Shown: one piece after another, positions 13,886 through 60,106 of the stretch
Position numbering within the stretch: the stretch's first letter is position 1
Layout of the letters: the number at the start of each line of letters is the position of its first letter
Virus record (IMG/VR): IMGVR_UViG_3300047375_000738
Source of the DNA: a virus
Taxonomy: Duplodnaviria > Caudoviricetes
Length of the DNA stretch: 64,000 nucleotides
Direction: 5' to 3' (one strand)
The notes under the pieces: generated by a model
What the model was told of the DNA's origin: nothing
The model's database searches: none
What the model saw: the letters and a program-made list of their open reading frames with translations, nothing else
Program-made: the position numbers and the translations under genes

Positions 13886-13979
13886 AGCGTTTCTCCTTTG
13901 TGTTGCTATACATATAATATAGCATTAGAGCCGCAAGGATACAACCTAGCAAAAGTAGGGGTTTTGGTATAATAAGTTT

Positions 13980-15059
13980 TTAGAGGTCTGTGCCTTGCTC
14001 AACATCTTTTGTTGAGATAGTAGCAAGTTGTTTGAACAGAGGACCTGTCTCGACTATAATTTTATGTCTTTCAGCTCTTTTTGATCCATCATCTCTAACT
14101 TTTGCTGCACCATAACTATATCTAATCATAAACAAAAAATTCCTTTGCTGGCCGATTTCGTGTACATATAGTGTTGGTCTTCCACCTAATTTCAAACTAG
14201 TCTCTAAGTTTACATTAGCAAGATTTTTACGCATAGTTCTAATTGTTTGTGCAGTGTAATCGTTTTTACCTAAATTAACAATATAAACTCTTGGATCTTT
14301 CTTTGTAAGATGCTCATCCATAAATCCAGCAACATTTGTAATTAGTTGTATTTCTTTAGCAGGATCATCACCTGCTGTAAGTGCGTTCAAGTCATCACTA
14401 ACTTGCTTCATTATTGAAACAACATGTTCTGCCGGATTTTCTTCGTAGTTCTCAATCGGCTTTAGTGTGACGCCCATTTCTTTAAAGAACACTTGCATAT
14501 TTTCAAATGTTCTAGGCGATGCTTGTCCAATAAGATTACTTCCTGTTTTTAGACTCCAGCCTTTAATTGTACGTTCTGTGCCATCTTCTTTTTTGTAAAT
14601 TAAAAAGATGTCTGCTTTTGTACCTTTTTGATCTTCTTCACCTGCTGCTTTAACAACTATTCTATCTGGCTTTCCGTTTTCGTAAAAGATTTTACTCCAT
14701 TTTTTAGCATAGACATCACTGTTTGCAAATCTTACTGCACCATCAAGTTCGTCTGACATTACGCTAGTAAGTGCTTCAATATCTTTTGCATCTGCAATAT
14801 TTTTCTTATTACTAATAATATTTTTAAAAGCAATGCTATCGCCTTCGTCACTCATAAATGTTAGGCTTAGGTCTTTAGTTTTAGAAGTTCTACTTAATAC
14901 TGCTTTGACTTGCTCAGCTGTAACTTGTTCATCACCAATAATCATTTTTGCAACAACTGCACCGCCTAGCAAGTACTCTCCCATGTGTCCACGAGTTGAG
15001 CCGTGCTTTAATTTAGCTACTTTGGCTTCTGTAATATTTTTAAAATCACTGTAACGCAT
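13980..15059 (-). CDS. putative PD-(D/E)XK-like nuclease, possibly virion-packaged
   Basis: GEY...KADIFL...GWSLKT catalytic-like pattern; N-terminal ITE leader. Confidence 0.45.
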   Translation of the reverse strand: MRYSDFKNITEAKVAKLKHGSTRGHMGEYLLGGAVVAKMIIGDEQVTAEQVKAVLSRTSKTKDLSLTFMSDEGDSIAFKNIISNKKNIADAKDIEALTSVMSDELDGAVRFANSDVYAKKWSKIFYENGKPDRIVVKAAGEEDQKGTKADIFLIYKKEDGTERTIKGWSLKTGSNLIGQASPRTFENMQVFFKEMGVTLKPIENYEENPAEHVVSIMKQVSDDLNALTAGDDPAKEIQLITNVAGFMDEHLTKKDPRVYIVNLGKNDYTAQTIRTMRKNLANVNLETSLKLGGRPTLYVHEIGQQRNFLFMIRYSYGAAKVRDDGSKRAERHKIIVETGPLFKQLATISTKDVEQGTDL

Positions 15060-15082
15060 TTGTATATTCCTGTTTTATATAT

Positions 15083-15769
15083 TTATTCAATATCAGGGAA
15101 TAAACATTCTTGTACGAATACTCTTACGTCCTCTTCGTCAAGTCCTAAACTGGTCATTGTTTTAGGAGTATGTGGATTTTGTTTTTGGTAATGGGCATAA
15201 CGATTTTGTGCAGTCTTAACTTCATCTGTATCTGCCATATGATTGTGATTACCAATTTCAGTAAGATATGCATCAACACTATCTAAACTAAGTTCTAGTA
15301 GTTGATCAAGTTCTTCACGTTTGCTCACGTTACCTGCTGCTACCATATGTGGTGAGAAAATTGCTTGAGCCCACTCAGGTAGTTCACGTTCTTTGCGCCA
15401 TTCAAGTTTACCTACTTCGTCACCAAATGCTTCAATCATTGGATGATCAGCATCTACGGTTCTGCTGTAGTCGTGAAAGAATCCTGTAATTTTATTTTTA
15501 CCAGCAATAACATCTAAGCCAAAAACAGGACCGTTATTGTCTAGTCTAGGAAATACACAACAATGCATCATCCACAAGCCTTTGCTGTCACGTACATCAA
15601 CTACATCAATGTGTGCTCTGCGATAGCTGTCACTGCTCCATACTCTATTAAGCCAGCCTGGTTGATTGAATCTATCCATGCCAGGTTCTTGTATTTCTGT
15701 ACCTGTAGCATCAAATGCATCAATTAGTCTATCTTGTATTTCAATTAAGGTTTCCCAAACTTCACTCAT
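15083..15769 (-). CDS. ferredoxin-dependent bilin reductase (PcyA/PcyX family)
   Basis: NRVW....YRRAH, MMHCCVFP, FGLDVIAG..KITGFFHD, LP.WA..IFS, QKQNPHT. Confidence 0.85.
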   Translation of the reverse strand: MSEVWETLIEIQDRLIDAFDATGTEIQEPGMDRFNQPGWLNRVWSSDSYRRAHIDVVDVRDSKGLWMMHCCVFPRLDNNGPVFGLDVIAGKNKITGFFHDYSRTVDADHPMIEAFGDEVGKLEWRKERELPEWAQAIFSPHMVAAGNVSKREELDQLLELSLDSVDAYLTEIGNHNHMADTDEVKTAQNRYAHYQKQNPHTPKTMTSLGLDEEDVRVFVQECLFPDIE

Positions 15770-16947
15770 GTTCTCTCCGTTTCAATAAATTTATTCTCTG
15801 GCAGCGATCCCCAATTGTAATATACTAAATGGTCAACGCCGATTTTTTTAGGTTGTTCGTATGCCTCTGACATAAACAAAAGCAAGTTTAATTTTTCGTC
15901 ATTGGCTGTATAATTAATTTGTGATCGTAGTTGTTTCTGTTCTTCGTTGTATGATGATACTAATAGTTCGTAGTTGTGAACTATATCTTGATTGATCTGA
16001 TCAAACGGTAATGTATTCCAATTATCTTTAAGCCAGGTTATGTTTCTATATATAGTATCATATCTTTGTAATGTATTGTAAATGTGGTCGTATTTTTCTG
16101 GGAAGTATTTTTCAAACGTTCTATAGCCCTGCTTACTTAGGCATTCTAGCATCCGCGGCTCGGCAAACATTATAAACGGATGATGATTTAGTATTGCTCT
16201 CCATGTTTTTTCAGTGATCCAATTGCTACCAGTTTCAGGGCAACTATTTGATTCTGATATGAAACTAAAAGATGTATTTTCATACAGCGTGTGATCAAAC
16301 GGAACTCCGTCGTGATGGAAAGCGCCTCCGGCCTTAACGTGAGATATTTGATCTGGGTTCCGAGCATGTCTTTTTAAAAACTTCGCTACAAACTTTTTAC
16401 TTCGAATGGGTTCCTGGGCGTCTCTATTAGCCTTATGTACTACATCGGTTATAGCATCAACTTGACTATTGACATAGTGCAAACTCCATTCCATGTCGTT
16501 TGTATTTAATATTTCCAGTTCTTTAAATTGTATTAATGGCATGATCCTATTTAACTTGTCTGATTTACCTGATAGAAACAAGCCTCTAAATTTATCTCTA
16601 TTCCACTTGGTGGAGAATTTTTGATCTTGATGGTCAACACTGTGTAAAATTTTATGCTTGAAGAATGCATATGGTATTACGTATGGGTGATGAAATTTAG
16701 TATCTTGTAATTGTGCTAAGTTGCAAAAATGAAAATGCAAATAGTTTTCCTGCGTACAGTATCTATGAATATACTGAACGTGTTGCTGTAATAGACCGGA
16801 TGGGTACAATTCCCAAAGCGACGATGTTATAACTGTTATTTGATATTCTTTGAAGGTTTCAAAAAATTCCTTCATGTGTTCGACTGTGTTCTGGGCATTG
16901 TTAGCATCATCAACAGGAATATTAAAAAATGCAAATAACCTTTTCAC
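15766..16947 (-). CDS. conserved phage protein, possible glycosyltransferase-like fold
   Basis: FSFISES...ITEKTWRAIL..HPF; paralog of 60579 and 61606 ORFs. Confidence 0.5.
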   Translation of the reverse strand: MKRLFAFFNIPVDDANNAQNTVEHMKEFFETFKEYQITVITSSLWELYPSGLLQQHVQYIHRYCTQENYLHFHFCNLAQLQDTKFHHPYVIPYAFFKHKILHSVDHQDQKFSTKWNRDKFRGLFLSGKSDKLNRIMPLIQFKELEILNTNDMEWSLHYVNSQVDAITDVVHKANRDAQEPIRSKKFVAKFLKRHARNPDQISHVKAGGAFHHDGVPFDHTLYENTSFSFISESNSCPETGSNWITEKTWRAILNHHPFIMFAEPRMLECLSKQGYRTFEKYFPEKYDHIYNTLQRYDTIYRNITWLKDNWNTLPFDQINQDIVHNYELLVSSYNEEQKQLRSQINYTANDEKLNLLLFMSEAYEQPKKIGVDHLVYYNWGSLPENKFIETERT

Positions 16948-17483
16948 TCACTCTCCAACTCCTCAAATAATTGCATAGCAAATTGAAAACAAATATTTGC
17001 TTCTTCGGCCATGTCGTCGTGTAACATCGATCTCACTGTAGTTTTTAGTTCTTCTACATTTTCAAAATCATACATTGTGCCAGAGCCAGGATTACGTTTG
17101 CGAATCATTTGTCCGCCGTACATATCACCAAAGTGTCTAACATAAAGATGTGCTAGAAATTCGTCCCTGTGTTCCATGTGCATTACATAATCTGTGTAGT
17201 CTGCTACAACTTGACAAAGTTGCAGTTCTTTACGATCAATATCAAACTCTTCTTCTAGTTCGGTCATATCCGCATGGATATTATTTGCTCTAGCAAGGTG
17301 TTCAATGCCTTCTAATGCACCGTGTCTGCCGGCTTGTGCTTCTAGTACTGCATACAATGCCCATTGATTGTAAAGGTAAGTATGGTATTCTTCTGGTTTC
17401 ATGCCCTTCAATAACTTGCGGGCATGTTCTGTTCTTTCTGCTTTACTATGGTTTTCCCATGTAAGTTCTTTAAGTTTGCTCAT
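16944..17483 (-). CDS. hemO: heme oxygenase
   Basis: LKE.T...H..AE proximal His; HLYVRHFGDMYGGQMI. Confidence 0.9.
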   Translation of the reverse strand: MSKLKELTWENHSKAERTEHARKLLKGMKPEEYHTYLYNQWALYAVLEAQAGRHGALEGIEHLARANNIHADMTELEEEFDIDRKELQLCQVVADYTDYVMHMEHRDEFLAHLYVRHFGDMYGGQMIRKRNPGSGTMYDFENVEELKTTVRSMLHDDMAEEANICFQFAMQLFEELESE

Positions 17484-17782
17484 TTGTCCTCTTCAATTTT
17501 GATACGCAATGGAAATTTATTTTCCTTGCAAATACTTTGTGCTTCTAATGCCTTCTGTTCTGCTATTTCGTAGTTATACGTACCAACTATACCTGAACCT
17601 TCTTCGTGAATTTTGTTAGTAATTTCCATTGCTGTATGTTCATTATGATGAAAAATGTTTACTAACAATGCAATTACAAAGTCCATTGGTGTCTTGTCAT
17701 CATTAAGAAAGATCACATGATACAAACTAGGCTCTTTAATTTTAATTTTGATTTTTTCATCTAATACTACATCAGTACTCAT
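17480..17782 (-). CDS. clpS: N-end rule adaptor ClpS
   Basis: P.LY.VIFLNDDKTPMDFV, IH..G..IVG.Y..EIAE.K, FPL. Confidence 0.9.
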   Translation of the reverse strand: MSTDVVLDEKIKIKIKEPSLYHVIFLNDDKTPMDFVIALLVNIFHHNEHTAMEITNKIHEEGSGIVGTYNYEIAEQKALEAQSICKENKFPLRIKIEEDK

Positions 17783-17796
17783 ATTATTCTCCTAGT

Positions 17797-17821
17797 AAAA
17801 TGGGGGGATATTACTCCCCCC
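17797..17821 (-). terminator. intrinsic terminator after hsp20
   Basis: GGGGGG/CCCCCC stem then TTTT on minus strand. Confidence 0.55.
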
Positions 17822-17828
17822 TAGACTG

Positions 17829-18275
17829 TTAACCTTCAATTGCATCAAAGTTTTTGATAGAAATTTTCTTTGGTTTCTGTGCTTCTGGCACATTGCGCAC
17901 CAAATGAATGTTAAGCATACCTAATTCAAGTCCAGCTTGTTCTACTTCGATATGCTCTGCTAGAGTAAACTCTCTACGGAAGTTACGTCCGCCAATACCT
18001 TTATGTAGGTAATTAACGTCTTCGCCTCCTGGAGGAGTAGTACCTTCAATTGTAAGGACATTCTTTTCTAGTGTAATATCCAAATTGTCCATACCAAAGC
18101 CAGCAACTGCCAACGAGATCATATACTCGTCTTCGTCGATTTCTACTACATTGTATGGTGGATAACCTTGTGATTTACTGTTTGCAAACTCTTTGTTGAG
18201 TTGGTTAAACATTCTATCAAAGCCAATAGTTGCTCTGTGAAATTCAGGTAGGTTTAGTGTTGTTAATCTTGTCAT
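17829..18275 (-). CDS. small heat shock protein Hsp20 (IbpA-like)
   Basis: IGFDRMF, YPPYN, LAVAGF, YLHKGI..R.F.R.F.LA, G.L.I.L. Confidence 0.92.
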   Translation of the reverse strand: MTRLTTLNLPEFHRATIGFDRMFNQLNKEFANSKSQGYPPYNVVEIDEDEYMISLAVAGFGMDNLDITLEKNVLTIEGTTPPGGEDVNYLHKGIGGRNFRREFTLAEHIEVEQAGLELGMLNIHLVRNVPEAQKPKKISIKNFDAIEG

Positions 18276-18327
18276 TTGTTTCTCCTTATAAAGCAAGAAT
18301 TATATTGAGCCCTTTCGGCGCTCATGT

Positions 18328-19488
18328 TTATTTACCAATTGTCGATCCTTCATAGACCGGATTGTGTGTTTGTGTGCAACGAATAAATGTTGTACACTTT
18401 GCTAGTTGTTTTAGTTTCATTGCACCTGCATAGGTACATGTACTACGCACACCTCCGAGGATCTCTTGTACCGTTCTGGCTACTTCTCCTCTATAAGGCA
18501 CTAACACTGTGCGTCCTTCTGATGAACGATAGTTTTTCAATCCACCAAAATGCTTGTCGTTTGCACTTTCGCTACTCATACCGTAGAATTGCACAAAATG
18601 TTTTTCTTCATAAACAGATTCAAAGAATCCGTCATCTGTTTTAGTTACTTCATTGGTTTCGTAAGTCTTAGTGATTATCTCACCACCGCCTTCATTGTGC
18701 CCAGCAAGCATGCCACCAAGCATAACAAAATCTGCGCCGGCAGCAAAGGCCTTAGCGACATCTCCAGGGCAAGTACACCCACCGTCAGCAATAATGTGAC
18801 CACCAAGTCCGTGTGCTGCATCAGCGCACTCGATGACTGCAGATAGTTGCGGATATCCCACACCAGTTTGAATCCTAGTAGTGCAAACAGACCCGGGACC
18901 AATGCCCACTTTAACAATATCAGCTCCTGCAAGGATAAGTTCCTCCGTCATTTCTCTAGTTACTACGTTACCAGCAATGATTACCAAGTCTGGAAACTCT
19001 GTACGTACTTTGCGAACGTGTGCTGCAAAATGATCGCTGTAACCATTAGCAATATCTATACATACATATTTAAGTTTATGTTCAACTTCTTTCTTTACTT
19101 GCAATAGTTTGTTGTAATCACTATCACCTGTGCCAATACTCATGGCTACATTTTCGGTGCGTTCTATAGAATCGCCATCTAAGTCTGCACCATTGAAGTA
19201 CTCAATTAAATATTCTGCACTGTATGTCTTAACCAAACAAGTAAACATTTCGCCTTCAGCAAGTTTGTCCGCCATGCGCATTGTACCAACACCGTCCATA
19301 TTACTTGCCATTATTGGAATACCTTCGTAGTGATATTCATCAGGTAATGGTGTTGCAATGTCGTGATCGTAATGCCTAAATTGGAACTTACGATTAAGTT
19401 TAACTTGACTACGACTTTTAAGTGTACTACGCTTAGGACGGATCAACACATCCTTGTAGTCTAATTTAATATCTTCTTCAATTCTCAT
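18328..19488 (-). CDS. guaC: GMP reductase
   Basis: [48 protein letters not shown]. Confidence 0.93.
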
Positions 19489-20161
19489 TTATTCTCCTAT
19501 ACAGTTCATCAGCCCACAGGCTGTAACCGTTAGCGTTTGGATGACCATCCTTACTAAAGTACTTTAAGTTTACACGATCTTTTGCTGTTTGTCTACCATA
19601 TTTTTTATGTACATAACTTAAAGATTCATCTACTTCTCCGCACCGATTTCTGTCACCATCTAAAAAACTGCGCATAGTTGTGTTAGTAATTATTTTATCT
19701 TTGTTTAACAACGAATAAACAGTTTCACTGTTGTCAAAATTATATGTGCCGTCAATACGTTTAAGATCATCAAAGCTAACAAATGCCAAACAGTCTATGT
19801 TGTTATTCATACAATAGGTTTGCCAACTATGTAGCATTACCATTGATTGATACTGAACTGCTTCGTCACTATAATACTTTAGCATAAAGTTTGAATCAAA
19901 CTTGTCATTGCTTATAGTTTGAAACTTACTATTGATTAGTCGACTAAAGGCTGTTAGGCCCCATACTGCTATGCTGTCTTTATGAATTGGCTGTTTTAAA
20001 AAACTAAGATACTGTAACCAATTACTATCACCTTGTCCGCCAAGGTTAGTATATTCGCATCCTAGTTTATCTGCTAATCTGCCTACCCATCCGCCTAAAC
20101 GAAATTCATCGTCAGTGCCTTCAGTCCAACTACATCCTAATGCATAAAGGTGTGTTACCAC
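19478..20161 (-). CDS. SGNH/GDSL-like hydrolase
   Basis: LGCSWT block I, N.G..G.SN, terminal DGHPN. Confidence 0.55.
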
Positions 20162-20394
20162 TGATCCTGAGCTTTTGCACGTAGTCTCTTATAACGTCGA
20201 ATAGCGGCTTCTTTTTCCTTGCGGCGCTTTGTACCTCTTGATTCATAGTACTCACGTTTACGCAATTCTTGTAGTAGTCCGTCATCAGATACTTTCTTTT
20301 TAAATTTGCGTAATGCCTTTGTAAAGTCGCCGTTGTGTACTACAACATGCAATCCTCTAAGTTCTTCGTCACGTTTCTTTTTGTTAAATTTCAT
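20155..20394 (-). CDS. rpsU: ribosomal protein bS21
   Basis: ALRKFKKKV...GLL.ELRKREYYE....KRR. Confidence 0.9.
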   Translation of the reverse strand: MKFNKKKRDEELRGLHVVVHNGDFTKALRKFKKKVSDDGLLQELRKREYYESRGTKRRKEKEAAIRRYKRLRAKAQDQW

Positions 20395-20776
20395 CTAATC
20401 CTCGTTTGATGTAGTGTTCTAAATATTGCAAGTCGTATATACGATTCGCACTAAGTTTATTATACGGGGTGATCCCGTCATTTGTCAAGTAAAAAGTGTT
20501 AGGTTGCGAAATAATCCAACCTGCTATATTTTTTGTTACAGGTGTACAAAAATCAAGATCGATAATTATCATGTTAACTTTTTTAACATGGTCGATCATC
20601 CAATCTATTTCTAAATCATCTTGGTGATCATACAAATAGATATTCACAGGAGCGCTGGTATGCGATAATAAATCGCTTACTGCATCTCTAATTTCTTGTT
20701 GTGGATATACTAACATAATGCTATAAACATCGTTATTAATACTATCGGGGGGAGTTATTAAAGTAATATCACTCAT
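20384..20776 (-). CDS. hypothetical protein
   Basis: start MSDITLITPPD overlapping upstream stop. Confidence 0.7.
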   Translation of the reverse strand: MSDITLITPPDSINNDVYSIMLVYPQQEIRDAVSDLLSHTSAPVNIYLYDHQDDLEIDWMIDHVKKVNMIIIDLDFCTPVTKNIAGWIISQPNTFYLTNDGITPYNKLSANRIYDLQYLEHYIKRGLDEI

Positions 20777-22910: not shown

Positions 22911-23402
22911 CTATTCCCACCTATAGAATATATGCGCACCTATTCTTCCGACTAGTTGTAGTGTCTTAGCCCAACGTGGATTAACATATGTAGCGTGATA
23001 ATGCGTAGAGCCTTCCGTAATGCCGCGATATTTGTTTTCTTCAACCATATTCCAAGCAATACTTTGTGCTTCTACCCAACGATCTTCGTCTTGTGGCCTG
23101 TCATGTTTTCCGTCACAGTACCAACTGAATTGACACTTGTTACGTAGCATATTTCCGTTAGCATCTTGTAATCCTTGCTTGACTACACCACAAACTGTAT
23201 CTGGATAACGTGTATCATTTACACGATTCAGCACTACGTCTGCTACTGCTGCCTTGTCTGCTAGGTTGCTTCCTCTTGCTTCATAGTATACATTCAGTGC
23301 CATACACTGCACTTGTGGAAATAGTTTTTCCAATTCAAAGTTTTGAGCCGATGCTGGACCGGTCACGAAAAGTAGCATTACTGCTGTAATAAAATGTTTC
23401 AT
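22911..23402 (-). CDS. cell wall hydrolase SleB (Hydrolase_2)
   Basis: CMALNVYYEARG, V..VVLNRV...YP.TVCGVV.Q, CQFSWYCDG, YHA.YV.P.W, IG.H.FY. Confidence 0.9.
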   Translation of the reverse strand: MKHFITAVMLLFVTGPASAQNFELEKLFPQVQCMALNVYYEARGSNLADKAAVADVVLNRVNDTRYPDTVCGVVKQGLQDANGNMLRNKCQFSWYCDGKHDRPQDEDRWVEAQSIAWNMVEENKYRGITEGSTHYHATYVNPRWAKTLQLVGRIGAHIFYRWE

Positions 23403-23845: not shown

Positions 23846-24325
23846 TTATTTTGCCATTTTAGCAACTGCGGCATCATAGTCTTCACGACTTACTACACCT
23901 TCGGTTAGTAGACGTTCACGGTTTGCCATATGTGCAGCCTGTGTGTCGTCTTTTGATCCGCCAAAGTAAGGAACACAATGTCCTTCTATTTCCATAATCT
24001 CTGTAACTTTTTTCATTTCGCCGTTGTATTCTACTTTGAAATCTCCTAAGATACGTCCAAACTTGCCTTTCATATCTTCGCCTTTGCGGTCTTCCGTAGT
24101 GATAAGTTTACCGCCGTGCTTCATAAGTTCTTTCAAACGTGCTTTAGCCGCTTCGCCGAACAAGTCTTCTACTTTGTCTCTTGTGCGTGACTCAGGCGTA
24201 TCAATGCCCATAATTCTTACACGCTCGTCTGTTAGTGTTACACCAAAACCTAGATCAATGTCTACGTCTACTGTGTCGCCGTCTACTACTTTAATGACTT
24301 TTACGTCATACTCATTATGTTGCAT
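23846..24325 (-). CDS. thermonuclease (SNase family)
   Basis: KVVDGDTVD, R.RI.GIDTPESR, KFGRILG. Confidence 0.88.
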   Translation of the reverse strand: MQHNEYDVKVIKVVDGDTVDVDIDLGFGVTLTDERVRIMGIDTPESRTRDKVEDLFGEAAKARLKELMKHGGKLITTEDRKGEDMKGKFGRILGDFKVEYNGEMKKVTEIMEIEGHCVPYFGGSKDDTQAAHMANRERLLTEGVVSREDYDAAVAKMAK

Positions 24326-26075: not shown

Positions 26076-26479
26076 GTTCTGTTTCCTCGCAGAGCAAAGT
26101 ACATGCCACCTACCCAAAGTAGTACATGCAGATTGTCATACCATAAGACGTCCCAGAAACTTTCGGGTTCGCCTGTCCATATAACACCTGTCATAATACT
26201 GGCAATAGTAATACCACTGAAACGTGTAATAACATCGCCAAACTCTTTTGTGCGTTTGATATAGTCTGCCATGCCGCCGACCAACAATCCTGCGGCAGCA
26301 CCAAGCTCTCCAAGTACAACAAACGTCCAAACTAATAGTGTAAGTTCTACTGGTGAGTCTTCAATGTTGATTGGCCACTTGTTCATTCCTTGCTGAAAGA
26401 ATACAACAATAAGCGGAATACGAAGCAGCCAATGAGTCATACAAAACTCTGGTATTCTGTGTACTAAAGTTTTAATCAT
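26072..26479 (-). CDS. DoxX-family membrane protein
   Basis: LLRIPL..VF..QG..K, E..A..GLLVG, LL..G..Y. Confidence 0.7.
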   Translation of the reverse strand: MIKTLVHRIPEFCMTHWLLRIPLIVVFFQQGMNKWPINIEDSPVELTLLVWTFVVLGELGAAAGLLVGGMADYIKRTKEFGDVITRFSGITIASIMTGVIWTGEPESFWDVLWYDNLHVLLWVGGMYFALRGNRT

Positions 26480-26898
26480 TACAGATCAGCCAGCAACTCC
26501 TTGAATTTCTTTTTTGACTTGCCTTTTACTTTTGTTTTGGAAATATCATTATCTCCGTCACCTACAACTACAATAGCAATCATACCCATTGTTTTGTGTG
26601 GAGTACACTGATACAAATACACACCTGGTGTGTCAAATGTAATCGCAACTTCTTTTGATAGTTTTGATTTACGTGGTGCGTCCCATCCGTCCGGACCTGC
26701 AATAAATTCTACATTGTGTCCTTTTGATGTTGGTACCCATGTGATTGTATCGCCTACTTCAATACGTGCGATATCTTCACTATATACCATCTTAGCGCCA
26801 TCTTCACGCTTGTTTAGCATATCGATCGTCATATCCTCTGCGAGTGCCGGAGTGGCAAGGGCGAGGATAATACTTACTGAACTTAATAATTTTCTCAT
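26479..26898 (-). CDS. pseudoazurin-type blue copper protein
   Basis: signal peptide; GHN and C-x2-H-x4-M (YQCTPHKTMGM) type-1 Cu ligands. Confidence 0.9.
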   Translation of the reverse strand: MRKLLSSVSIILALATPALAEDMTIDMLNKREDGAKMVYSEDIARIEVGDTITWVPTSKGHNVEFIAGPDGWDAPRKSKLSKEVAITFDTPGVYLYQCTPHKTMGMIAIVVVGDGDNDISKTKVKGKSKKKFKELLADL

Positions 26899-27690: not shown

Positions 27691-28296
27691 TTAAATTGTA
27701 GCAGGCATAGTAAATAATGCATGTACACCATCATCGGTTGGCCTACGTGCAAATACGCACCACTTGATTACATCTTGATTAGGATAATGTTCGTCACAAT
27801 ACTCTCGAAAACTTGTTCCTGTTGTGTACACATCATCTGCAATTAATACAGGATCTGTTGGATCTCCGCTTGCATATTTGTTTAGTGCTTCGCCTAGTGC
27901 CATACCGCCTCTTGGGATACCTTCGGCTTTGTAGAAAGGACGTTTTTGGTAATCCATTATCATACGTGCAAGTCCTTCCCACCACTCTGGGCGTATAGCA
28001 TCGCACTCAATCTTCCATGCTAGTTTTAGTCCTGCATGACTTGTAAAGTCGCCAACTTCAAATAAATCTGCGCCTGTTCTAAATACCATTAGTTCTCTTT
28101 CCAATTCTTCAATATAATCTGCTGCTTGCCAAGCAAAATGTTCTGTGCATCTTGTCTTCCATTCTTCGCCTGCTTGATTTTTTAATCTTACAACCCATTC
28201 ACTTTTTTGTTGTCTTGGTATAATATCTGTATATACCTTATCAACTACATCGTGTTCGTTTTCTTCTAATTCGAATCCGTGTGTATTATGCGTCAT
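27691..28296 (-). CDS. phosphoribosyltransferase (OPRT-like) with N-terminal extra domain
   Basis: F.SHAG..L.WKIECD, GIPRGG, PRPP motif LIADDVYTTGTS. Confidence 0.75.
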   Translation of the reverse strand: MTHNTHGFELEENEHDVVDKVYTDIIPRQQKSEWVVRLKNQAGEEWKTRCTEHFAWQAADYIEELERELMVFRTGADLFEVGDFTSHAGLKLAWKIECDAIRPEWWEGLARMIMDYQKRPFYKAEGIPRGGMALGEALNKYASGDPTDPVLIADDVYTTGTSFREYCDEHYPNQDVIKWCVFARRPTDDGVHALFTMPATI

Positions 28297-29101
28297 TATT
28301 AGCACCTGTTATCATTTTAATATTCTGTGACAACTTTGCGTTGAACTCTGCATCTGTTTGCGAATGTGCTAGTCCTTCACTTAATGCTCTGCTAAAACTT
28401 GCTGTGATGTCATTATTCATTGATAGCCTACGGCATGCTTCTTGTGTAGCATATCCGCCACTAAGGAATACAACCTTTTCTACGTTGTGTTTAACTGTCA
28501 AGTTATGATACAAGTTAGGTGTTTCAGGAGGTGTTAGTTTAAGAATAACGGAAAAGTCTTTGCCTTGTAAATATATTTCTAACAATCGATACAGCTCATC
28601 TTCAATTGCGGCTTTGTCAGGATGATCAATCGGCACTTCGGGTTCGACAATTGGTACAAGACCGTACTCACTAATTGTGTGTGCTAGTTCAAACTGCTGT
28701 TTAAGAACTGCACCTATCATGCTTTCACTTTTAATAATGCTACGCATCTTAGTGCCGTAGATTCGAGGACCAATGCCGTTTGTAGCCCATTCGCACATAG
28801 CACGTACATCAAATTCTTTGAGCATACCGTTGTCTTCGCATCCGCTATCAACTTTTAGAAACGTGTCAATACCTTTTTCATCAAGCACATTAACCATGCC
28901 GCGGGTGACTGTGTCTTGGTAGAGGATTGCTCCCCAGATGTTTGAGTCGTTGAAGTCAGGACTGTTGACCATTCTAAGACGCATAGCATGAACTTTCTCC
29001 ATCTTGTTTTCTTCTGTGTATTCTTGTCCGTAGCGTTCTAGTACGCCACCTGTTGAACCACCACTGTGATCCATTGCTGCAATAAATCTATGATCACTCA
29101 T
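28286..29101 (-). CDS. class I fructose-bisphosphate aldolase
   Basis: FIAAMDHSGGST, FLKVD.G, GTKMRS.I, PIVEPEV, FLSGGY, ASFSRAL. Confidence 0.9.
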   Translation of the reverse strand: MSDHRFIAAMDHSGGSTGGVLERYGQEYTEENKMEKVHAMRLRMVNSPDFNDSNIWGAILYQDTVTRGMVNVLDEKGIDTFLKVDSGCEDNGMLKEFDVRAMCEWATNGIGPRIYGTKMRSIIKSESMIGAVLKQQFELAHTISEYGLVPIVEPEVPIDHPDKAAIEDELYRLLEIYLQGKDFSVILKLTPPETPNLYHNLTVKHNVEKVVFLSGGYATQEACRRLSMNNDITASFSRALSEGLAHSQTDAEFNAKLSQNIKMITGANNDA

Positions 29102-29432
29102 ATGTTTCGCCTGTTTCACGGAAGAAGTTTTCACTCCAAAATGCTTTGTCGTCAATCCATACATCGTAGTTTTCTTTTTTGCCTACGCTGAGTTCATGAT
29201 ACTTTGCACCCCAACCCTCTAATTGGTTCTTGGTTAGGTCGTAATAGTCAACGCCACTAACACACCCGCGAGCAGTCATATACTTAATTGTATGTCCTGC
29301 ATCGTACAATGCATTTACTCGTGCAATGCGTTCTGGCATTGGAATATGATTTGCATAATCCTTCTTGCCGCCGCTGTCTGGAATAATTACTTCCTTGCAG
29401 ATCGTACCGTCGATATCAATTACATATTTCAT
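29094..29432 (-). CDS. HAD-family phosphatase (capsule-biosynthesis-phosphatase-like)
   Basis: DIDGTIC, TARG, K..YD.WIDDKA. Confidence 0.8.
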   Translation of the reverse strand: MKYVIDIDGTICKEVIIPDSGGKKDYANHIPMPERIARVNALYDAGHTIKYMTARGCVSGVDYYDLTKNQLEGWGAKYHELSVGKKENYDVWIDDKAFWSENFFRETGETYE

Positions 29433-29450
29433 TAAACGTCCTTTATATTA

Positions 29451-29757
29451 GAGTGGCACTTCTGTTGCTAGGCAGTACCCGCCCCCACATACCCTTAGGC
29501 TGCTAATGCCATTTCTGGCGCATAATTGTTATTTGCAATTATAAAGTTTGACCAATAACGCAGTCATCCGGTTAACTCCACTTCACTTTCACACCTGTCG
29601 ATCCTAGTTCTGCCCCATCATAAACATACGACTTGCGGCTTTCGGCCCTTGTCCTATGCACAGGAAAGTAGGTGCATCTACTCTCATATGTTTATGGTGG
29701 AGCAGCGCGGTACTGCCCCGCGGTCCAGTATGTGTCTACGTTGCTTCAACGTCAACA
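29451..29757 (-). ncRNA. ssrA: permuted two-piece tmRNA, tag ANNNYAPEMALAA (29495-29536)
   Basis: T-arm CGCGG-GGCAGUA-CCGCG then CUGCUCCACCA (end 29695) precedes GGGGCAGAACUAGGAUCGAC (start 29616); acceptor stem with G3.U. Confidence 0.92.
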
Positions 29758-29760
29758 TAT

Positions 29761-29791
29761 TATTTATAACATAGTTTTGTAAGCATGTCAA
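29761..29791 (-). promoter_or_regulatory. tmRNA promoter (sigma70 overlapping late TATAAATA)
   Basis: TTGACA-17-TATAAATA. Confidence 0.7.
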
Positions 29792-29813
29792 CCACGAAGA
29801 TATAAATATTAGC

Positions 29814-30677
29814 ATGAAACCATTTAGTATAGGCGATGCTGCTTTTAATATCAGTATGACATGCAATCTTACATGTGAAGGCTGCGAAAGTTTTAACAAC
29901 TACAATTTTAAAGGGCAAGTAAAATTTGCAGACTATGCCGATTACTATAAAGAATGGAGTAAAAAACTTAATATCGAAACTGTAACTATTCACGGAGGCG
30001 AACCATTTACAAATCCAGACATATTAAATTGGGTTACGAATTTAAAAAGGTTATGGCCAACTGCTGATGAGTATTATGTAGCAACCAACGGCACTATATT
30101 ACGTAACAAGATTACAGTTGCAAGACAAATTATAGATCAAGGATACTTTATAAATGTAACTGTTCACGATCCTGCAATGTATGAAGACATACGTAATCAA
30201 CTAGAAGAAGTATTAGAACCATACGACTATCTAATACGTAAAATGGATCTTGGTTACGAGTATTATGATAAGCATACTGAACAGATATACGGATTGATAG
30301 AATATAATTATCACTTTAAAAAAAGTGCTATCGATTATATAAAAGACAAAACATGGTACATGCATCGTAGCGATCCTGTTCAAGCCTATAAAACTTGCTT
30401 AGAAGATCTTAGTCCTTGTAACTTCTTTCATAAAGGAATGTTATACCAATGTCAATTAACAGCATTGCGTGATGATTTATTTTTGCAGTTTAGTATAGAA
30501 CCTGATGCAGTTGACTTACTAAAAAAGTACAATCACGGGGATCCATTTTATCCTATGAATAAACTACGCAAGTTTTTTAGAACTCATAACTTACCAATTC
30601 CACAGTGTACTCTATGTCCTGGTTGCCCTGACACACATCCTATATTTCCAATGGCTAAAAAGAAAATTAAGTTTTAA
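29814..30677 (+). CDS. radical SAM protein
   Basis: CNLTCEGC CxxxCxxC, GGEP, TNGT, C-terminal Cys cluster. Confidence 0.88.
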   Translation: MKPFSIGDAAFNISMTCNLTCEGCESFNNYNFKGQVKFADYADYYKEWSKKLNIETVTIHGGEPFTNPDILNWVTNLKRLWPTADEYYVATNGTILRNKITVARQIIDQGYFINVTVHDPAMYEDIRNQLEEVLEPYDYLIRKMDLGYEYYDKHTEQIYGLIEYNYHFKKSAIDYIKDKTWYMHRSDPVQAYKTCLEDLSPCNFFHKGMLYQCQLTALRDDLFLQFSIEPDAVDLLKKYNHGDPFYPMNKLRKFFRTHNLPIPQCTLCPGCPDTHPIFPMAKKKIKF

Positions 30678-50857: not shown

Positions 50858-50925
50858 TGTTCTGTTTCCTTATTTGTATTTAGTTATACCGATTAATAAA
50901 TATTGTTATAAGTGAGGGCTTGAAA

Positions 50926-51687
50926 ATGATAACAGAAATGACATTCCATGAGCGTAGTCTCTTATTTGCTAACTTAGCTAGTATAGCATATAACGACGAC
51001 ATAGAGCAAGTAAAAAAACTTGTACGTAAACTTGGTTTTACCACAGTAGAATTTTATAACAAAGACGGAGCACAGGCATACCGTTTTATGAACAAGAAAG
51101 ATTTAGTTATTGCTTGTCGCGGAACACAACCAAGTGAGTTCAACGATATCAAAGCAGACTTGAAAGCAATGCCTGTTGTTGCTGAAACTGTAAGCAGAGT
51201 ACACAGAGGTTTCAAAGCAGAAGTAGATGAACTATGGCCTATGATATCTGAAGACCTAGCACGTAAAACTAATCGAGACAAGGACGTTTGGTTCTGTGGA
51301 CATAGTTTAGGTGCTGCTATGACAACTATTATGGCTAGTAGATGCAACTGCGATGTTGACATGCCTGATATACAGGAAGTGTACACATACGGTTCGCCAA
51401 GAGTAGGATGGCGTGGTTACTGTCGTAGTTTAGATGTAGCACACCATCGTTGGGTAAACAACAATGATATTGTTACTAGAGTACCACTAAGAGCTATGGG
51501 CTACATACATCACGGCACAGAACATTATATGAATGCACACGGGCTAGAGCGTAAGCTCACACCTTGGCAGCGTACTAAAGATCGTTGCAGAGGTATGTGG
51601 ATGGGCTTAAAGCAAGGTGGCGTCGATAGTTTCAGTGATCATTCAATGACAAACTATATTGCTAACTTGAAAAAAATGCAGGGCTAA
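50926..51687 (+). CDS. lipase class 3
   Basis: IACRGT, VHRGF, CGHSLGAA, YGSPRVG, NNNDIVTRVP, DH. Confidence 0.9.
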   Translation: MITEMTFHERSLLFANLASIAYNDDIEQVKKLVRKLGFTTVEFYNKDGAQAYRFMNKKDLVIACRGTQPSEFNDIKADLKAMPVVAETVSRVHRGFKAEVDELWPMISEDLARKTNRDKDVWFCGHSLGAAMTTIMASRCNCDVDMPDIQEVYTYGSPRVGWRGYCRSLDVAHHRWVNNNDIVTRVPLRAMGYIHHGTEHYMNAHGLERKLTPWQRTKDRCRGMWMGLKQGGVDSFSDHSMTNYIANLKKMQG

Positions 51688-54045: not shown

Positions 54046-54378
54046 AATGTTCTCCTTTTGCCAAACAACAAAAAGCAGGATACTTTAACAAATATCCAAC
54101 TAGTGAACAGAAAGGCTTACAAGCCTATCTGTGTTAAGTTTTCTAACTTAACAATACTAACATAACAAAAGAAACAGTAAAGGTCAACCTCTTTTTTTAA
54201 CAGTTGCCCTATTCTTTTGGGTGCGCAGATCTGCACAGTTGCGCTGTACGCATATCGTCTTTGCGCATACAACAGTTGTTCTCACCGGTTTTTCATGTTA
54301 AATATAGTTGTAGAAGGAGTAAAACTAACGGTTGTTAGACTCGGATCACACACATATATATACGAAGGAAACGGAAAA

Positions 54379-54639
54379 ATGACTACATTGGTAGCAAACA
54401 CATTCGAAATAGTTGGACTAAACGGCATCGCTAACTTTTTCAAAAACTTAGGTGCCGAACTACGCAGACGCAGAAACATCAAACAAACATACAGAGCACT
54501 TTCAGAACTATCAAACCACGAACTTAATGATATTGGTATTGCTCGTGGCGATATTAAATTTATTGCAAATCAATCATACCCAAAAGCATTACGTGGCGAA
54601 GCTGTAGAAGCAAACCGCAACTTGAGAGGTTGGGTATAA
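54379..54639 (+). CDS. DUF1127 (YjiS-like) small protein
   Basis: RRRR....T..ALSELS..EL.DIGI.RGDI. Confidence 0.85.
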   Translation: MTTLVANTFEIVGLNGIANFFKNLGAELRRRRNIKQTYRALSELSNHELNDIGIARGDIKFIANQSYPKALRGEAVEANRNLRGWV

Positions 54640-55694: not shown

Positions 55695-55922
55695 TTACTT
55701 ACGGTTCCAAATGGCCCATAGTACCCATACTGCGATCAAGCCCATAACGCCCTGCGAACCTAAGCTCGCAATCATTCCTGATACGTTATCAACTACTGAT
55801 AGACCCTGTGGCATAAACGGCATATTGCCTAGCCCTAAAACTTCAGCTATGATCACTAAAGCTGCCAGACTAACACCAACTTCTGCTAGTGCGCCTGCCC
55901 ACGCTTTTACTTTATTAAGCAT
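55695..55922 (-). CDS. small membrane protein
   Basis: 2 hydrophobic helices, GGAG SD. Confidence 0.7.
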   Translation of the reverse strand: MLNKVKAWAGALAEVGVSLAALVIIAEVLGLGNMPFMPQGLSVVDNVSGMIASLGSQGVMGLIAVWVLWAIWNRK

Positions 55923-56074
55923 CTCCATAAGAAATACCTCCTTCTTGTTATACGAACATAAAGTCCGTCTGTTATTTAAATATACCGAGACCCGGTATTA
56001 TAACCCAACTAAACAGTTATAACATCACTTAACTTTGGATTTGATAAATAATTTTACCATAAAGTGAGTATATA

Positions 56075-57277
56075 ATGATTAATTTAACACCTTTCGAGGA
56101 TATCATAGAAAAATTTAAAGCTGACGGGAACTATCGTGTGTTCAACGATATACTACGTGAACGTGGAAAATTTCCTAAAAATATTTGGTATGGAAAGTAC
56201 GCAATTAAAGAAATCGTCAATTGGTGTAGTAATGATTACCTCGGTATGGGACAACATAAGGTAGTGATTGATGCTATGCATACTGCATTAGAACAGACCG
56301 GAGCAGGCTCAGGCGGCACTCGGAATATAAGTGGCACAAGTCATTATCATGTTGCTCTAGAAGCAGAGCTTGCAGTGTTACATAGTAAAAAAAGTGCTCT
56401 ACTCTTTTCTAGTGCTTATGTTGCAAATGAATGGAGTCTAATTGCGCTAAACAAGATCGTTCCCAACATTATGTTTTTGAGTGATAGTAAAAATCACGCA
56501 AGCCTCATACAGGGTATCCGACATAGTGGTGCTGACAAATCTATATGGCAGCACAACGATATGAAGCAATTAGAGCAACAATTGGAGCAGGCACGAGCCT
56601 CCGGACACACCCCTTGCATAGTGTTTGAGTCTGTGTATAGCATGGACGGCGATGTATCTCCAATTGAAGCAATTTGTGACTTAGCAGAAAAATACAATGC
56701 CATCACATATATCGATGAAGTTCATGCAGTAGGTTTGTATGGTAAGCGTGGAGCAGGGCAGTTAGAAAAACTAGGTGTTCAAGATCGTGTTGACATTGTA
56801 AATGGCACACTAGGTAAAGCCATAGGTGTTACTGGTGGATATATAGCAGGTGAAGCAAGTGTTATTGATGCAATACGCTTGATCGCATCAGGCTTTATAT
56901 TCACTACTTCTTTATCGCCTGTTCTATGTGCAGGTGCTTTAGCAAGTATTAAATGGTTACAGGATCATCCTGAGTTAAGAGAACAGCATCAACGGCAAGC
57001 ACAGCGTTTGAAGTGTGGCTTTGAAGCAAAAGGCATCGAAGTAGCAAAGACAACCACTACCCACATTGTGCCTGTGATGATTAGAGATGCTGTTAAATGT
57101 AAACGTATCAGTGATGTATTGCTGGATGACTATGGACTGTATGTACAGCCTATTAACTATCCAACAGTACCAGTAGGCGAGGAAAGGTTACGTTTTGCTC
57201 CTACACCATTGCACACTGATGCTATGATAAGTGACTGTGTAATGGCAGTAAGAAAGGTTATAGATGAATATACGTAA
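56075..57277 (+). CDS. hemA: 5-aminolevulinate synthase
   Basis: [43 protein letters not shown] Lys, INYPTV..G.ERLR..P. Confidence 0.93.
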
Positions 57278-57680
57278 AACGTTATGGCTAATCGCAGGCT
57301 TCTTTTGCTTGGGTATGGCTTATGTAGGTGTAGTAGTACCTGGAATACCATTTAGTATTTTCCTAGTAATGGCTGCATACTGCTTTAGTAAAAGTAGTCA
57401 GCGGATGCATGACTGGTTATACAATCACAAATACTTTGGACCGTTCCTAACTAATTGGGTACAAAAGAAAGTGTTTCCGACCAAAGGCAAATACCTAATG
57501 GTAATAGTAATGGCAAGTTCTCTTGCATTCCTTTGGTTTACAACAGAGAATATTAAAGCTGTTGCGTGGAGCGGAGGATTTATGGCACTAGTTGCTATAT
57601 GGGCATGGCGCTACCCAGGTACTGTTGCAGAACAGGAACGCAGAGTCAAAGCAGGCGAAAAGGTTGCTTGGTTCAAATAA
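57264..57680 (+). CDS. YbaN/DUF454 membrane protein
   Basis: G..G.VVPG.P...F...AAYCF.KSS.R.H.WL..HK.FG. Confidence 0.85.
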
Positions 57681-57885
57681 ATTAGACCTACACGGAGTTA
57701 GGCACTACGAAGTTGACTACAAGGTAGAAAACTTTATACTAATGAATCAAAAGCTGTTACCGCTTACAATTATTTGCGGTAACAGTCCTGCTATGATTAG
57801 TTTAGTTGAAACTGTAATTAAAAGAATAGACTGTGAAGAAGTAGCAATGGATCGCTACGGAGTAATAGTTGTTAGACGTATCTAA
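57664..57885 (+). CDS. minimal Smr-domain-like protein
   Basis: LDLHG, IICG; TTG start inferred. Confidence 0.55.
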   Translation: MLGSNKLDLHGVRHYEVDYKVENFILMNQKLLPLTIICGNSPAMISLVETVIKRIDCEEVAMDRYGVIVVRRI

Positions 57886-58394
57886 ACAAGCCACTGTTCC
57901 CAACTTGGATGTTTTACTTGAATATCCATTAACTTTCGTTTCCTAGCAAGTTCGTAGTATCCTGGCTTGTAAGGCTTGTTGATAGGACTAATGTTTAGCT
58001 TATTGCTCTTTCTACTATTACAAGGACCACATGCACAAACACAATTAGTCCAACTTGTTTTACCACCATGACTGATAGGAAGTACATGGTCTACAGTTAG
58101 TTGAGCTTTGGGAAATGGGTTGTTACAATATTGGCAAGTGTATTGGTCACGTAAGTAAAGGTTGTTTTTGCTAAATCTAGGGTTCCTGGTGCGCCGGAGG
58201 AAATCTTTTAGCATTATAACCGCCGGCACTCTCGTTTCCCACCGGGGGCTCCGTACGATCCAATCGTCGTACCAATCTAATACTGTACACTTGTCGTGAT
58301 ACATGTAAAGAATAGCTTCTCGCCATTGTACTGCACTAAGTGGTAGATAACTTACAGGCTGTCCGTCTGCATTAATAACTAAGGTGTCGCTCAT
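57882..58394 (-). CDS. HNH endonuclease
   Basis: RD..TCQYC, TVDHV.P.S.GG...W.N.V.AC..CN..K. Confidence 0.9.
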   Translation of the reverse strand: MSDTLVINADGQPVSYLPLSAVQWREAILYMYHDKCTVLDWYDDWIVRSPRWETRVPAVIMLKDFLRRTRNPRFSKNNLYLRDQYTCQYCNNPFPKAQLTVDHVLPISHGGKTSWTNCVCACGPCNSRKSNKLNISPINKPYKPGYYELARKRKLMDIQVKHPSWEQWLV

Positions 58395-59021: not shown

Positions 59022-59582
59022 TTATACAAAATTAAGTAATAGTTTTGGTGTGCGTCCGCCATTGAAGCCTGCATGCCAAATGAATGGGTCACGCCATTTG
59101 TATACTGTACCAACTGGTTGATTGATATAGTAATCATCTTCTATCATAAAGACGTGACCCATCTCTGGGGGGTTGATGTGGACATGATAGCGTCCTAAAC
59201 CAAAGCTGCGAAGCTCATGCTGATCTATATGCCACGGACAACAGAAGCCTGGCTTGATCATACTTACCCAACAGGCGTTAGCATCTTGTACGCCCATAAA
59301 ATCCATAAGACGTTCCTGCACACTTTGATCAAAGTTTATTCCTGGATAGAACATATACCATTCTGCACTACCACCTTCGCTTACTTTTTTATAGCCAGCT
59401 GCGTCCCAAGTTGATAGAGTAGCTTCTAGATCTTCGGGCTTGGTTACTGTTTCTAGCTCGCCGTCTACATACCCTAGTCCTGTGTGCGGAGCAATTGTAG
59501 CAGGCACTTGTTCAAGCAGGCTTGAACAGAACTCCTGCCAATCTACTGTGTCCATTACACCAATATTAGTTGCTGATTTCAT
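59022..59582 (-). CDS. 2OG-Fe(II)/Asp-beta-hydroxylase-like oxygenase
   Basis: PWHID HxD, distal WHAGFN. Confidence 0.65.
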   Translation of the reverse strand: MKSATNIGVMDTVDWQEFCSSLLEQVPATIAPHTGLGYVDGELETVTKPEDLEATLSTWDAAGYKKVSEGGSAEWYMFYPGINFDQSVQERLMDFMGVQDANACWVSMIKPGFCCPWHIDQHELRSFGLGRYHVHINPPEMGHVFMIEDDYYINQPVGTVYKWRDPFIWHAGFNGGRTPKLLLNFV

Positions 59583-60106
59583 ATATACTGATCAAACATT
59601 GACTTGCTAATGTGATCCATTGATGCTTGCCATACACTACCTGCTTTTGTATCCCATATTAGTCTAGGAGGCAGGTCAGTTACTAGCCATGCTTTGTCTA
59701 CTTTAATTTCTTTCTCAAGCTGCCCAGGTGACCATTGTGTTAATCCTGCACAAATTTTAAAGGCATCTGGACGTTGTTGACTTACAAGTTTTTCAAACAT
59801 CAAATCATCACTAGAGATATTTACACCCTTGTCAAGAAACAGTGTATTAGAACTGACAAAGTCTTCTGTGTGCATCATCATTATACTCATAGGATTTACA
59901 GGTCCACCTATGTGTATTGGATCAATGTTGTTTGGATAGTTGATGCCGTGTTGTTGAAGTAAATCGCTAAGATACTTTCCACTCATTCGATTGATCACTA
60001 GACCTGTTGCACCTGCAGGTGTTTCTTCAAATATAAAAACTACTGTGTTGTTAAAGAATCCTTTGAGAGTAGGTGATGATACTAGGAACTTTCCTGTGCG
60101 TTTCAA
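59579..60106 (-). CDS. YqgE/AlgH family protein
   Basis: FLVS.P, F..TVV, GA.GLVINR, GGPV, G...WSPGQLE.E....W. Confidence 0.88.
   Translation of the reverse strand: MKRTGKFLVSSPTLKGFFNNTVVFIFEETPAGATGLVINRMSGKYLSDLLQQHGINYPNNIDPIHIGGPVNPMSIMMMHTEDFVSSNTLFLDKGVNISSDDLMFEKLVSQQRPDAFKICAGLTQWSPGQLEKEIKVDKAWLVTDLPPRLIWDTKAGSVWQASMDHISKSMFDQYI

Follow-up and report, generated by a model that had tools for sequence, protein, structure and literature searches.

Predicted genes for 5-aminolevulinate synthesis, heme opening and bilin reduction lie in two separate modules of an uncultured marine jumbo phage

Published phage tetrapyrrole genes and the window

In a screen of Tara and JGI data, Wegner et al. 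2024 (Nat Commun, PMC11480375) found a viral 5-aminolevulinate (ALA) synthase gene, valaS, with the heme oxygenase and bilin reductase genes hemO and pcyX. On marine contigs resembling the pelagiphage Mosig, the genes stood together in a cassette, were divided in a "broken cassette", or were represented by valaS alone. Heme feedback residues are lost in many of the encoded enzymes (vAlaS), a freshwater member was shown to be active, and of the two purposes weighed, cofactor supply and iron, the former is favoured. Here we analyze a 64,000-nucleotide (nt) stretch of IMGVR_UViG_3300047375_000738, hereafter the window (counts given for the window cover this stretch only), which comes from the genome of a T4-like giant (jumbo) phage, marine and uncultured. 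Very probably, the window carries this published gene set in two separate modules, which would make a heme precursor, open heme and convert the product, by reduction, to a pink bilin. The arrangement fits the broken cassette, in that hemO and pcyX are together and alaS is elsewhere on the contig, with hemO and pcyX split by one inserted gene. Shared with the published cassette are the three genes, the Mosig-like marine membership and a vAlaS without heme feedback residues. Unlike that cassette, the window has a glycosyltransferase-like gene between hemO and pcyX, and its alaS lies 39 kb off. The connection of alaS with HemO/PcyX is already in print (PMC11480375), and in this regard the window is new only as another marine genome.

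The best isolate match of the window, and the closest cultured phage, is Pelagibacter phage Mosig EXVC030M (MT647606), whose PcyX and HemO are 46.5% and 35% identical, respectively, to those of the window. At the DNA level, positions 13900-18400 show no similarity to isolated phages. Mosig hemO and pcyX are adjacent and overlapping, whereas in the window a gene of 393 amino acids (aa), ORF393, stands between them. Upstream of hemO-pcyX, Mosig has 2-oxoglutarate (2OG)-Fe(II) oxygenase genes where the window has clpS and hsp20. The 141-kb Mosig genome contains an annotated ferrochelatase gene and, within the 16.7-kb region viewed, no alaS. Among cells, the only case cited of alaS beside bilin-synthesis genes is the hemO-pcyA-alaS island of Bradyrhizobium sp. 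ORS278, which also includes bphP (PMC11480375). The phytochrome of that organism uses phycocyanobilin (PMC11480375), whereas five large relatives of the window phage yielded neither a GAF nor a phytochrome domain.

The hemO gene (16944-17483, minus strand) encodes a protein of 179 aa (vHemO; PF01126 60.2 bits, cut-off 23). When it was aligned to HO-1 and HO-2 structures, His12 coincided with the proximal His of HO-2, and GDMYGG (residues 119-124) matched the distal GDLSGG. For comparison we used 81 viral loci with a related pcyX, to which all counts of related loci below refer; His12 and GDxxGG are retained in 81/81. The reductase gene (15083-15769, minus strand) encodes a ferredoxin-dependent bilin reductase (FDBR) of 228 aa (PF05996 60.9 bits, cut-off 31). 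Over its full length, the protein matches PcyX_EBK42635 (5OWG) with an E-value of 3.7e-73, compared to 2.6e-13 for the best PcyA, and the NCBIfam PcyA model gives 75 bits, far under its cut-off of 206. Asp55, Met67, His69 and Asp86 are at positions identical to those of PcyX_EBK42635, and this signature is likewise retained in 81/81 related loci. Asp55 occupies the position of PcyA Glu76 and separates phycoerythrobilin-making PcyX from PcyA (Wegner et al. PMC11480375; 2026 Protein Science paper PMC13446030); residue roles are as given in these two papers, which cite Ledermann et al. 2016, 2018. Judged by its sequence, the reductase is a PcyX (AX clade of FDBRs) rather than a PcyA. Compared to PcyX_EBK42635 (Ledermann et al. 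2016, 2018, as cited there), it comes from a different phage lineage, and its product is predicted from homology.

The alaS gene (56075-57277, plus strand) lies 39 kb from the run of genes with hemO and pcyX, on the opposite strand, and each module has its own promoter-like site. Its product, of 400 aa, scores 562.8 bits against TIGR01821 (cut-off 338.55), with all sister families under their cut-offs (KBL, 334.8 versus 460; BioF, 322.9 versus 426; SPT also under). The match to the Rhodobacter capsulatus ALA synthase 2BWN has an E-value of 1e-126, and the lysine that binds pyridoxal phosphate, Lys248, is retained. Lys341 is present in place of the heme-site His342, and the last 20 residues include a single Cys, which is internal, whereas the end equivalent to Cys400 has none. 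On these features, vAlaS is a true Shemin-pathway ALA synthase without heme feedback residues, of the viral AlaS subtype of Wegner et al. Overlapping the end of alaS by 14 nt is a gene for a small inner-membrane protein of the DUF454/YbaN family (57264-57680, plus strand; PF04304 105.1 bits). A first-pass annotation, made from the letters of the DNA, had named a hemO and a PcyA/PcyX-type reductase at 15083-17483 and a Shemin-type hemA with YbaN elsewhere. All of these genes stand where it put them, with family models over cut-off and a PcyX match far stronger than the PcyA match; what it overlooked is the 393-aa gene, which fills half of the span (15766-16947).

In the proposed pathway, vAlaS would feed glycine and succinyl-CoA into the host heme pathway continuously, the enzyme being expected to keep doing so because its heme feedback residues are absent. 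HemO would convert heme to biliverdin IX-alpha, iron and carbon monoxide, and the PcyX-type reductase would then reduce biliverdin to phycoerythrobilin, with four electrons delivered via host ferredoxin. Gene identities, catalytic residues, gene order and the patterns of conservation and co-occurrence among relatives come from the sequences themselves; that the enzymes are active is inferred from tested homologues, and both the origin of the ferredoxin and the time at which the genes are expressed are presumed.

Relatives and the purpose of the gene set

IMG/VR contains 198 relatives of pcyX. The large pcyX contigs (named G001 and so on) span 280-400 kb, two of them rated complete, and because of this size the lineage is one of jumbo phages. 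The closest large relative is G001, whose PcyX is 90% identical to that of the window. Six of the 10 large pcyX contigs carry alaS, and pcyX is present on 3/3 alaS contigs of at least 45 kb, at a distance of 25-70 kb from alaS. The split layout recurs in G001, G004, G005, G006, G008 and G010-G013, again with the modules 25-70 kb apart; in locus L169, alaS lies immediately beside pcyX-hemO. Hence the co-occurrence of hemA with hemO/pcyX, on which the first-pass annotation had built, extends to relatives.

Because the PcyX catalytic residues and the coupling to hemO are kept in related loci, we read the reduced bilin, and not released iron alone, as the likely selected product. Several points weigh against the proposed pathway and this reading of it. 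The relative G003 carries hemO-pcyX but no alaS, although it is rated 100% complete, and because such a complete relative exists, the alaS module and the hemO-pcyX module are not obligately linked. The freshwater vAlaS/HemO/FDBR set that was tested had PcyA, not PcyX, as its reductase (PMC11480375). Within the window, a hairpin between hsp20 and clpS may divide the hemO-pcyX run into two transcripts, and the promoters were called by consensus matches only. In addition, PcyX may merely clear biliverdin, thereby speeding HemO, which fits iron release equally well.

One possible alternative, which we consider rather less probable than the reading above, is that the two are independent helper modules. 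In that case, vAlaS-DUF454 would sustain the supply of heme, cytochrome and B12 for respiration, clpS-hemO-pcyX would do an unrelated job, and their co-occurrence would reflect shared phage ancestry. In support of this idea, the modules lie 39 kb from each other, are encoded on opposite strands and have separate promoter-like sites, and alaS is accompanied by a partner of its own, DUF454, and by an HNH endonuclease. G003, with hemO-pcyX and no alaS, points the same way, as does Mosig, in which hemO-pcyX goes with the annotated ferrochelatase and no alaS is seen in the region viewed. So do the contigs that carry valaS alone, for which cofactor supply is favoured (Wegner et al., PMC11480375). 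However, a true three-gene cassette exists in L169 and in the data of Wegner et al., and if the modules had no link in function, such a cassette would be difficult to account for. The published gene set carried in two modules remains our preferred reading.

Candidate bilin acceptors and electron donors

The first-pass annotation had reported neither a bilin-binding protein nor a ferredoxin in the window. Scans of ~70 open reading frames (ORFs) of the window with Pfam or NCBIfam models bear this out: they revealed no ferredoxin, GAF domain or globin, the only redox-type candidates being a pseudoazurin-like cupredoxin and a radical SAM protein. The wider search for GAF, phytochrome and ferredoxin domains that had been suggested was run on the window and five large relatives, and it likewise found none; in the relatives, two of them rated complete, Fer2 ferredoxin (PF00111) and GAF (PF01590) were both absent, as was a CpeT-type lyase (PF06206). 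The cupredoxin (26479-26898, minus strand) scores 103.3 bits against TIGR02375, just below the cut-off of 109.85. It is presumably periplasmic, and for this reason it is an unlikely reductant for PcyX.

The large relatives do encode a different kind of candidate acceptor. The Pfam family Phycobilisome (PF00502; cut-off 22.2) matches giant ORFs of 4109 aa in G005 (41.7 bits) and 3225 aa in G006 (27.6 bits), the former of which starts with the tail-fibre domain Mtd_N and the latter of which carries CBM_5_12 repeats. In the 5-6 repeats of ~140 aa that each protein contains, Cys, Arg, Asp, Tyr, Asp and Tyr residues are invariant. Compared to the PDB, the repeat profile matches phycobiliproteins only (best E-value, 6.8e-5), and the invariant Cys falls on the alpha-84 chromophore cysteine (phycocyanin alpha-Cys84). 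An AlphaFold2 model of the repeat has a predicted local distance difference test (pLDDT) score of 88.5, and its best 50 Foldseek matches in the PDB are all phycobiliproteins, with a probability of 1.00 and template modelling (TM) scores of 0.6-0.7. The domain thus resembles phycobiliproteins and bilin-binding globins (PF00502; BBAGs, Rockwell et al. 2023 PMC10151467), having the same predicted fold and the residues Cys-x-Arg-Asp ... Tyr ... Gly around the alpha-84 site. In contrast to free phycobiliprotein subunits of 160 aa, the domains of the relatives occur as 2-35 tandem copies within fibre-like phage proteins of 1000-6400 aa.

We then looked at the distribution of this domain. It is present in every large relative tested (G001-G006, G011 and G020), all of which have pcyX, and CxRD is retained in 35/43 instances. 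Further domain-bearing viral contigs were found with a degenerate DNA pattern, the repeat alignment being too divergent for search. Overall, the domain spans 1464 representative clusters, whose proteins reach 6382 aa and hold as many as 35 copies. Cyanophages have it too, in 339-467 records, among them the giant tail-fibre proteins of S-PM2, P-HM1 and P-HM2. Examples of giant fibre-like proteins with the domain are encoded at L256:2502-14831, which is the 4109-aa protein with one repeat domain at residues 1690-1830, and at L257:4242-13919 (both minus strand), and others on L261, L264, L266, L268 (S-PM2p091) and L269 (P-HM2 PHM2_096). While widespread among jumbo phages and among the tail-fibre proteins of cyanomyophages, the domain lacks a dedicated Pfam family, and no description of phage fibre proteins with phycobiliprotein-fold domains was found in the literature searched. 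S-PM2 and P-HM2 show light-dependent adsorption, the cause of which is stated to be unknown (PMC6628666).

Given these findings, phycoerythrobilin made by HemO and PcyX might be bound by the tandem fibre domains, yielding pigmented or light-responsive fibres, with vAlaS meeting a stoichiometric demand for heme. The PF00502 matches, the Cys, Arg and Asp of the alpha-84 site and the modelled phycobiliprotein fold argue for such a virion pigment, as does the presence of the domain in relatives that all carry pcyX. Nevertheless, we judge it unlikely. The domain is not in the window, where phmmer and hidden Markov model searches of all ORFs of at least 50 aa for the phycobiliprotein-like repeat gave nothing below an E-value of 0.8. 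Mosig, a complete genome with hemO-pcyX, has no such domain. Moreover, domain-bearing contigs show no bilin reductase (0/16 and 0/5, 21 overall; G021 and G022 show none either), a result that lowered our estimate. The missing CpeT-type lyase in five relatives also counts against this idea, and bilin binding by the repeat is a prediction only. The domain is far more widespread than pcyX, and its link with PcyX is only a lead.

Similarly doubtful is a push-pull for iron, in which vAlaS would raise heme synthesis, HemO would degrade heme mainly to free iron and PcyX would clear biliverdin for HemO turnover: alaS, hemO and pcyX do occur together in most large relatives, an iron-supply role is discussed in PMC11480375 and the window has no bilin acceptor, but heme synthesis uses iron first, with no net gain unless host heme is the source (in which case alaS is unneeded), the modules 39 kb apart are transcribed separately, a complete relative does without alaS, and the four-electron, product-specific PcyX signature in 81/81 loci exceeds what biliverdin clearance needs.

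Neighbouring genes and biological meaning

The hemO and pcyX genes belong to a single minus-strand run, which begins at a sigma-70 promoter-like site (20459-20488) with TTGACA, an 18-nt spacer and TATAAT (12/12 hexamer matches, by consensus match alone). The site is followed, in order, by genes for ribosomal protein bS21, a 227-aa ORF, GMP reductase, Hsp20, the hairpin, ClpS, HemO, ORF393, PcyX and a 359-aa ORF. The bS21 gene (20155-20394, minus strand) scores 59.6 bits against TIGR00030 (cut-off 28.95), and the 227-aa ORF between it and guaC has no family match. The guaC gene, for guanosine monophosphate (GMP) reductase (18328-19488, minus strand), matches PF00478 with an E-value of 2.5e-69 and NF003470 with 527.9 bits (cut-off 397). 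Next comes a gene for an IbpA/B-like small heat-shock protein, Hsp20 (17829-18296, minus strand; PF00011 56.7 bits, over cut-off), for which the IbpA model gives an E-value of 1e-39 but a score under its cut-off. Between hsp20 and clpS lies the putative hairpin (17802-17821, minus strand), which is G+C-rich with a weak T tail and is possibly a partial terminator or an RNA-stabilising element. Downstream of it, overlaps of 4 nt are seen at clpS/hemO, hemO/ORF393 and ORF393/pcyX, and because each of the three junctions has one, translational coupling of clpS-hemO-ORF393-pcyX is suggested. The first-pass annotation had described hemO, the reductase, hsp20 and clpS as one operon. The single minus-strand run agrees with this, with the qualification that a hairpin follows hsp20 and that ORF393 separates hemO from pcyX.

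ClpS, the N-degron adaptor of ClpAP, is encoded at 17480-17782 (minus strand; PF02617 95.3 bits), and the gene ends 4 nt into hemO. Both ClpS and Hsp20 are over their Pfam cut-offs and lie in a run with hemO as first annotated; the NCBIfam equivalog models for ClpS score under their cut-offs. Compared to E. coli ClpS structures (E-value, 8e-17), NDD..TPM and the pocket His are conserved; we take NDD..TPM and His66 (E. coli numbering) to be the N-degron pocket. ClpS turns ClpAP away from ssrA-tagged substrates. The window also encodes a permuted, two-piece transfer-messenger RNA (tmRNA) of the alphaproteobacterial type (29450-29808, minus strand; Rfam RF01849 117.6 bits), for which ARAGORN gives the tag ANNNYAPEMALAA. 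The tmRNA, clpS and hsp20 may form a phage set for protein quality control. In related loci, clpS is directly 5' of hemO in 72/80 testable cases and hsp20 is 5' of clpS in about 66/81, across HemO identities down to 30-35%. These data make a functional link between clpS and hemO a lead only; inherited synteny could also account for the arrangement. Linkage of clpS or hsp20 to hemO was not found in the literature searched, and the main text of PMC11480375 has 0 mentions of ClpS or hsp20.

The inserted gene, ORF393 (15766-16947, minus strand), shares 4 nt with hemO at the hemO stop and 4 nt with pcyX at the pcyX start. Its product has no match in Pfam, PHROG, NCBIfam or PDB sequences. An AlphaFold2 model (pLDDT 80.4) was compared to known structures with VIA-align, and the best 50 matches were all GT-B glycosyltransferases, with Z-scores of 8.5-11.1 over 224-278 residues. 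The top match is T4 DNA alpha-glucosyltransferase, and Foldseek agrees weakly. According to the model, ORF393 is a glycosyltransferase-like protein with the two-Rossmann-domain GT-B fold. We identified 21 homologues of ~370 aa, with a conserved E-x7-TEKTWR-like block, and the sequence cluster has 60 members on 52 contigs. In none of the viral loci with a related pcyX (0/81) is ORF393 found at the hemO|pcyX junction, and among the 80 other viral loci its homologues show no linkage to hemO/pcyX. The junction itself is overlapping or abutting in 70/81 loci and carries other inserts, of at least five unrelated kinds, in 10/81. These include SGNH-hydrolase-like and class II aldolase/adducin-like proteins, judged by sequence motifs alone; loci with other junction genes are L007:9234-10001, L039:9378-10001, L055:9366-10001 and L078:9351-10001. 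Given its GT-B fold and the repeated insertions at this site, we consider ORF393 to be cargo, probably unrelated, in an insertion-prone junction.

Two genes of the run were considered as partners of the bilin. A bilin-binding or bilin-modifying role for ORF393 was rejected as the main explanation of the gene, in view of the GT-B fold, the homologues unlinked to hemO/pcyX and the junction with unrelated inserts. The 359-aa gene directly 3' of pcyX (13980-15059, minus strand) matches only PHROGs without assigned function and viral hypothetical proteins with a faint restriction-endonuclease lead; PHROG, NCBIfam and atlas comparisons gave no support for it as a bilin binder.

Near alaS, the pairing with DUF454 appears to be characteristic of phages. 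DUF454 adjoins alaS in 15/23 phage-type alaS loci, in placements that vary from downstream overlapping to upstream to convergent, compared to 0/71 genuine alphaproteobacterial alaS loci, even at an E-value of 10. The alaS-DUF454 pairing was not found in the literature searched, and DUF454 and YbaN have 0 mentions in the main text of PMC11480375. The pair is flanked by a gene for an HNH endonuclease (57882-58394, minus strand; PF01844, E-value 1.5e-14), which is retained beside it in L165-L168, L170 and L174. There are hints here that alaS-DUF454 moves as a mobile cassette. On the other side of alaS is a gene for a 77-aa hydrophobic membrane protein (55695-55928, minus strand) with the ribosome-binding site AAGGAGG and a strong terminator (55684-55658). 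A plus-strand ORF of 103 aa (55711-56022) was considered as a gene and set aside as probably a shadow of this one. The plus-strand island 5' of alaS also encodes a DUF1127 domain protein (54217-54639, plus strand); CcsR-like RNAs of Rhodobacter are linked to a DUF1127 protein.

A phage-type alaS (66-72% identical), in most cases with DUF454, is also present on contigs L176-L183 and L188. These contigs were binned as Crocinitomicaceae, Neomarinimicrobiota (335 kb), Polynucleobacter, Saprospiraceae, Vibrio, Flavobacteriales and Neisseriaceae. Such non-alphaproteobacterial contigs, assigned to metagenome-assembled genomes ("MAGs"), are probably mis-binned DNA of jumbo phages.

Phage hallmarks in the window include ribonucleotide reductase, tail fibres and a large PHROG match, and curli-type genes were detected with Pfam. 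The cellular AlaS nearest to the window product is from Pelagibacteraceae (59-60% identity), and the host is probably an alphaproteobacterium. The radical SAM protein mentioned above is encoded at 29814-30677 (plus strand), adjoining the tmRNA gene of the opposite strand, and shows weak generic MoaA, NirJ and QueE-like matches, all far under cut-off. Other accessory genes encode a cell-wall hydrolase (22911-23402), a staphylococcal-nuclease-like protein (23846-24325), a class I fructose-bisphosphate-aldolase-like protein (28286-29164), a class 3 lipase (50920-51687) and an AlgH-like DUF179 protein (59579-60106).

Taken alone, the window extends a class of phage helper genes that is already published by one more marine genome and changes little. 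The side observations deserve more attention, above all the phycobiliprotein-like fibre domain. The phage-specific pairing of alaS with DUF454 offers a first clue to the function of a membrane protein that is widespread, and the near-constant coupling of clpS, hemO and pcyX points to a tie between protein turnover and bilin synthesis. With the fibre domains there is, for the first time, a concrete candidate for a bilin acceptor encoded by phages. If true, the pigmented-fibre mechanism could account at once for bilin synthesis by phages whose hosts are non-photosynthetic and for the sensing of light by some phages.

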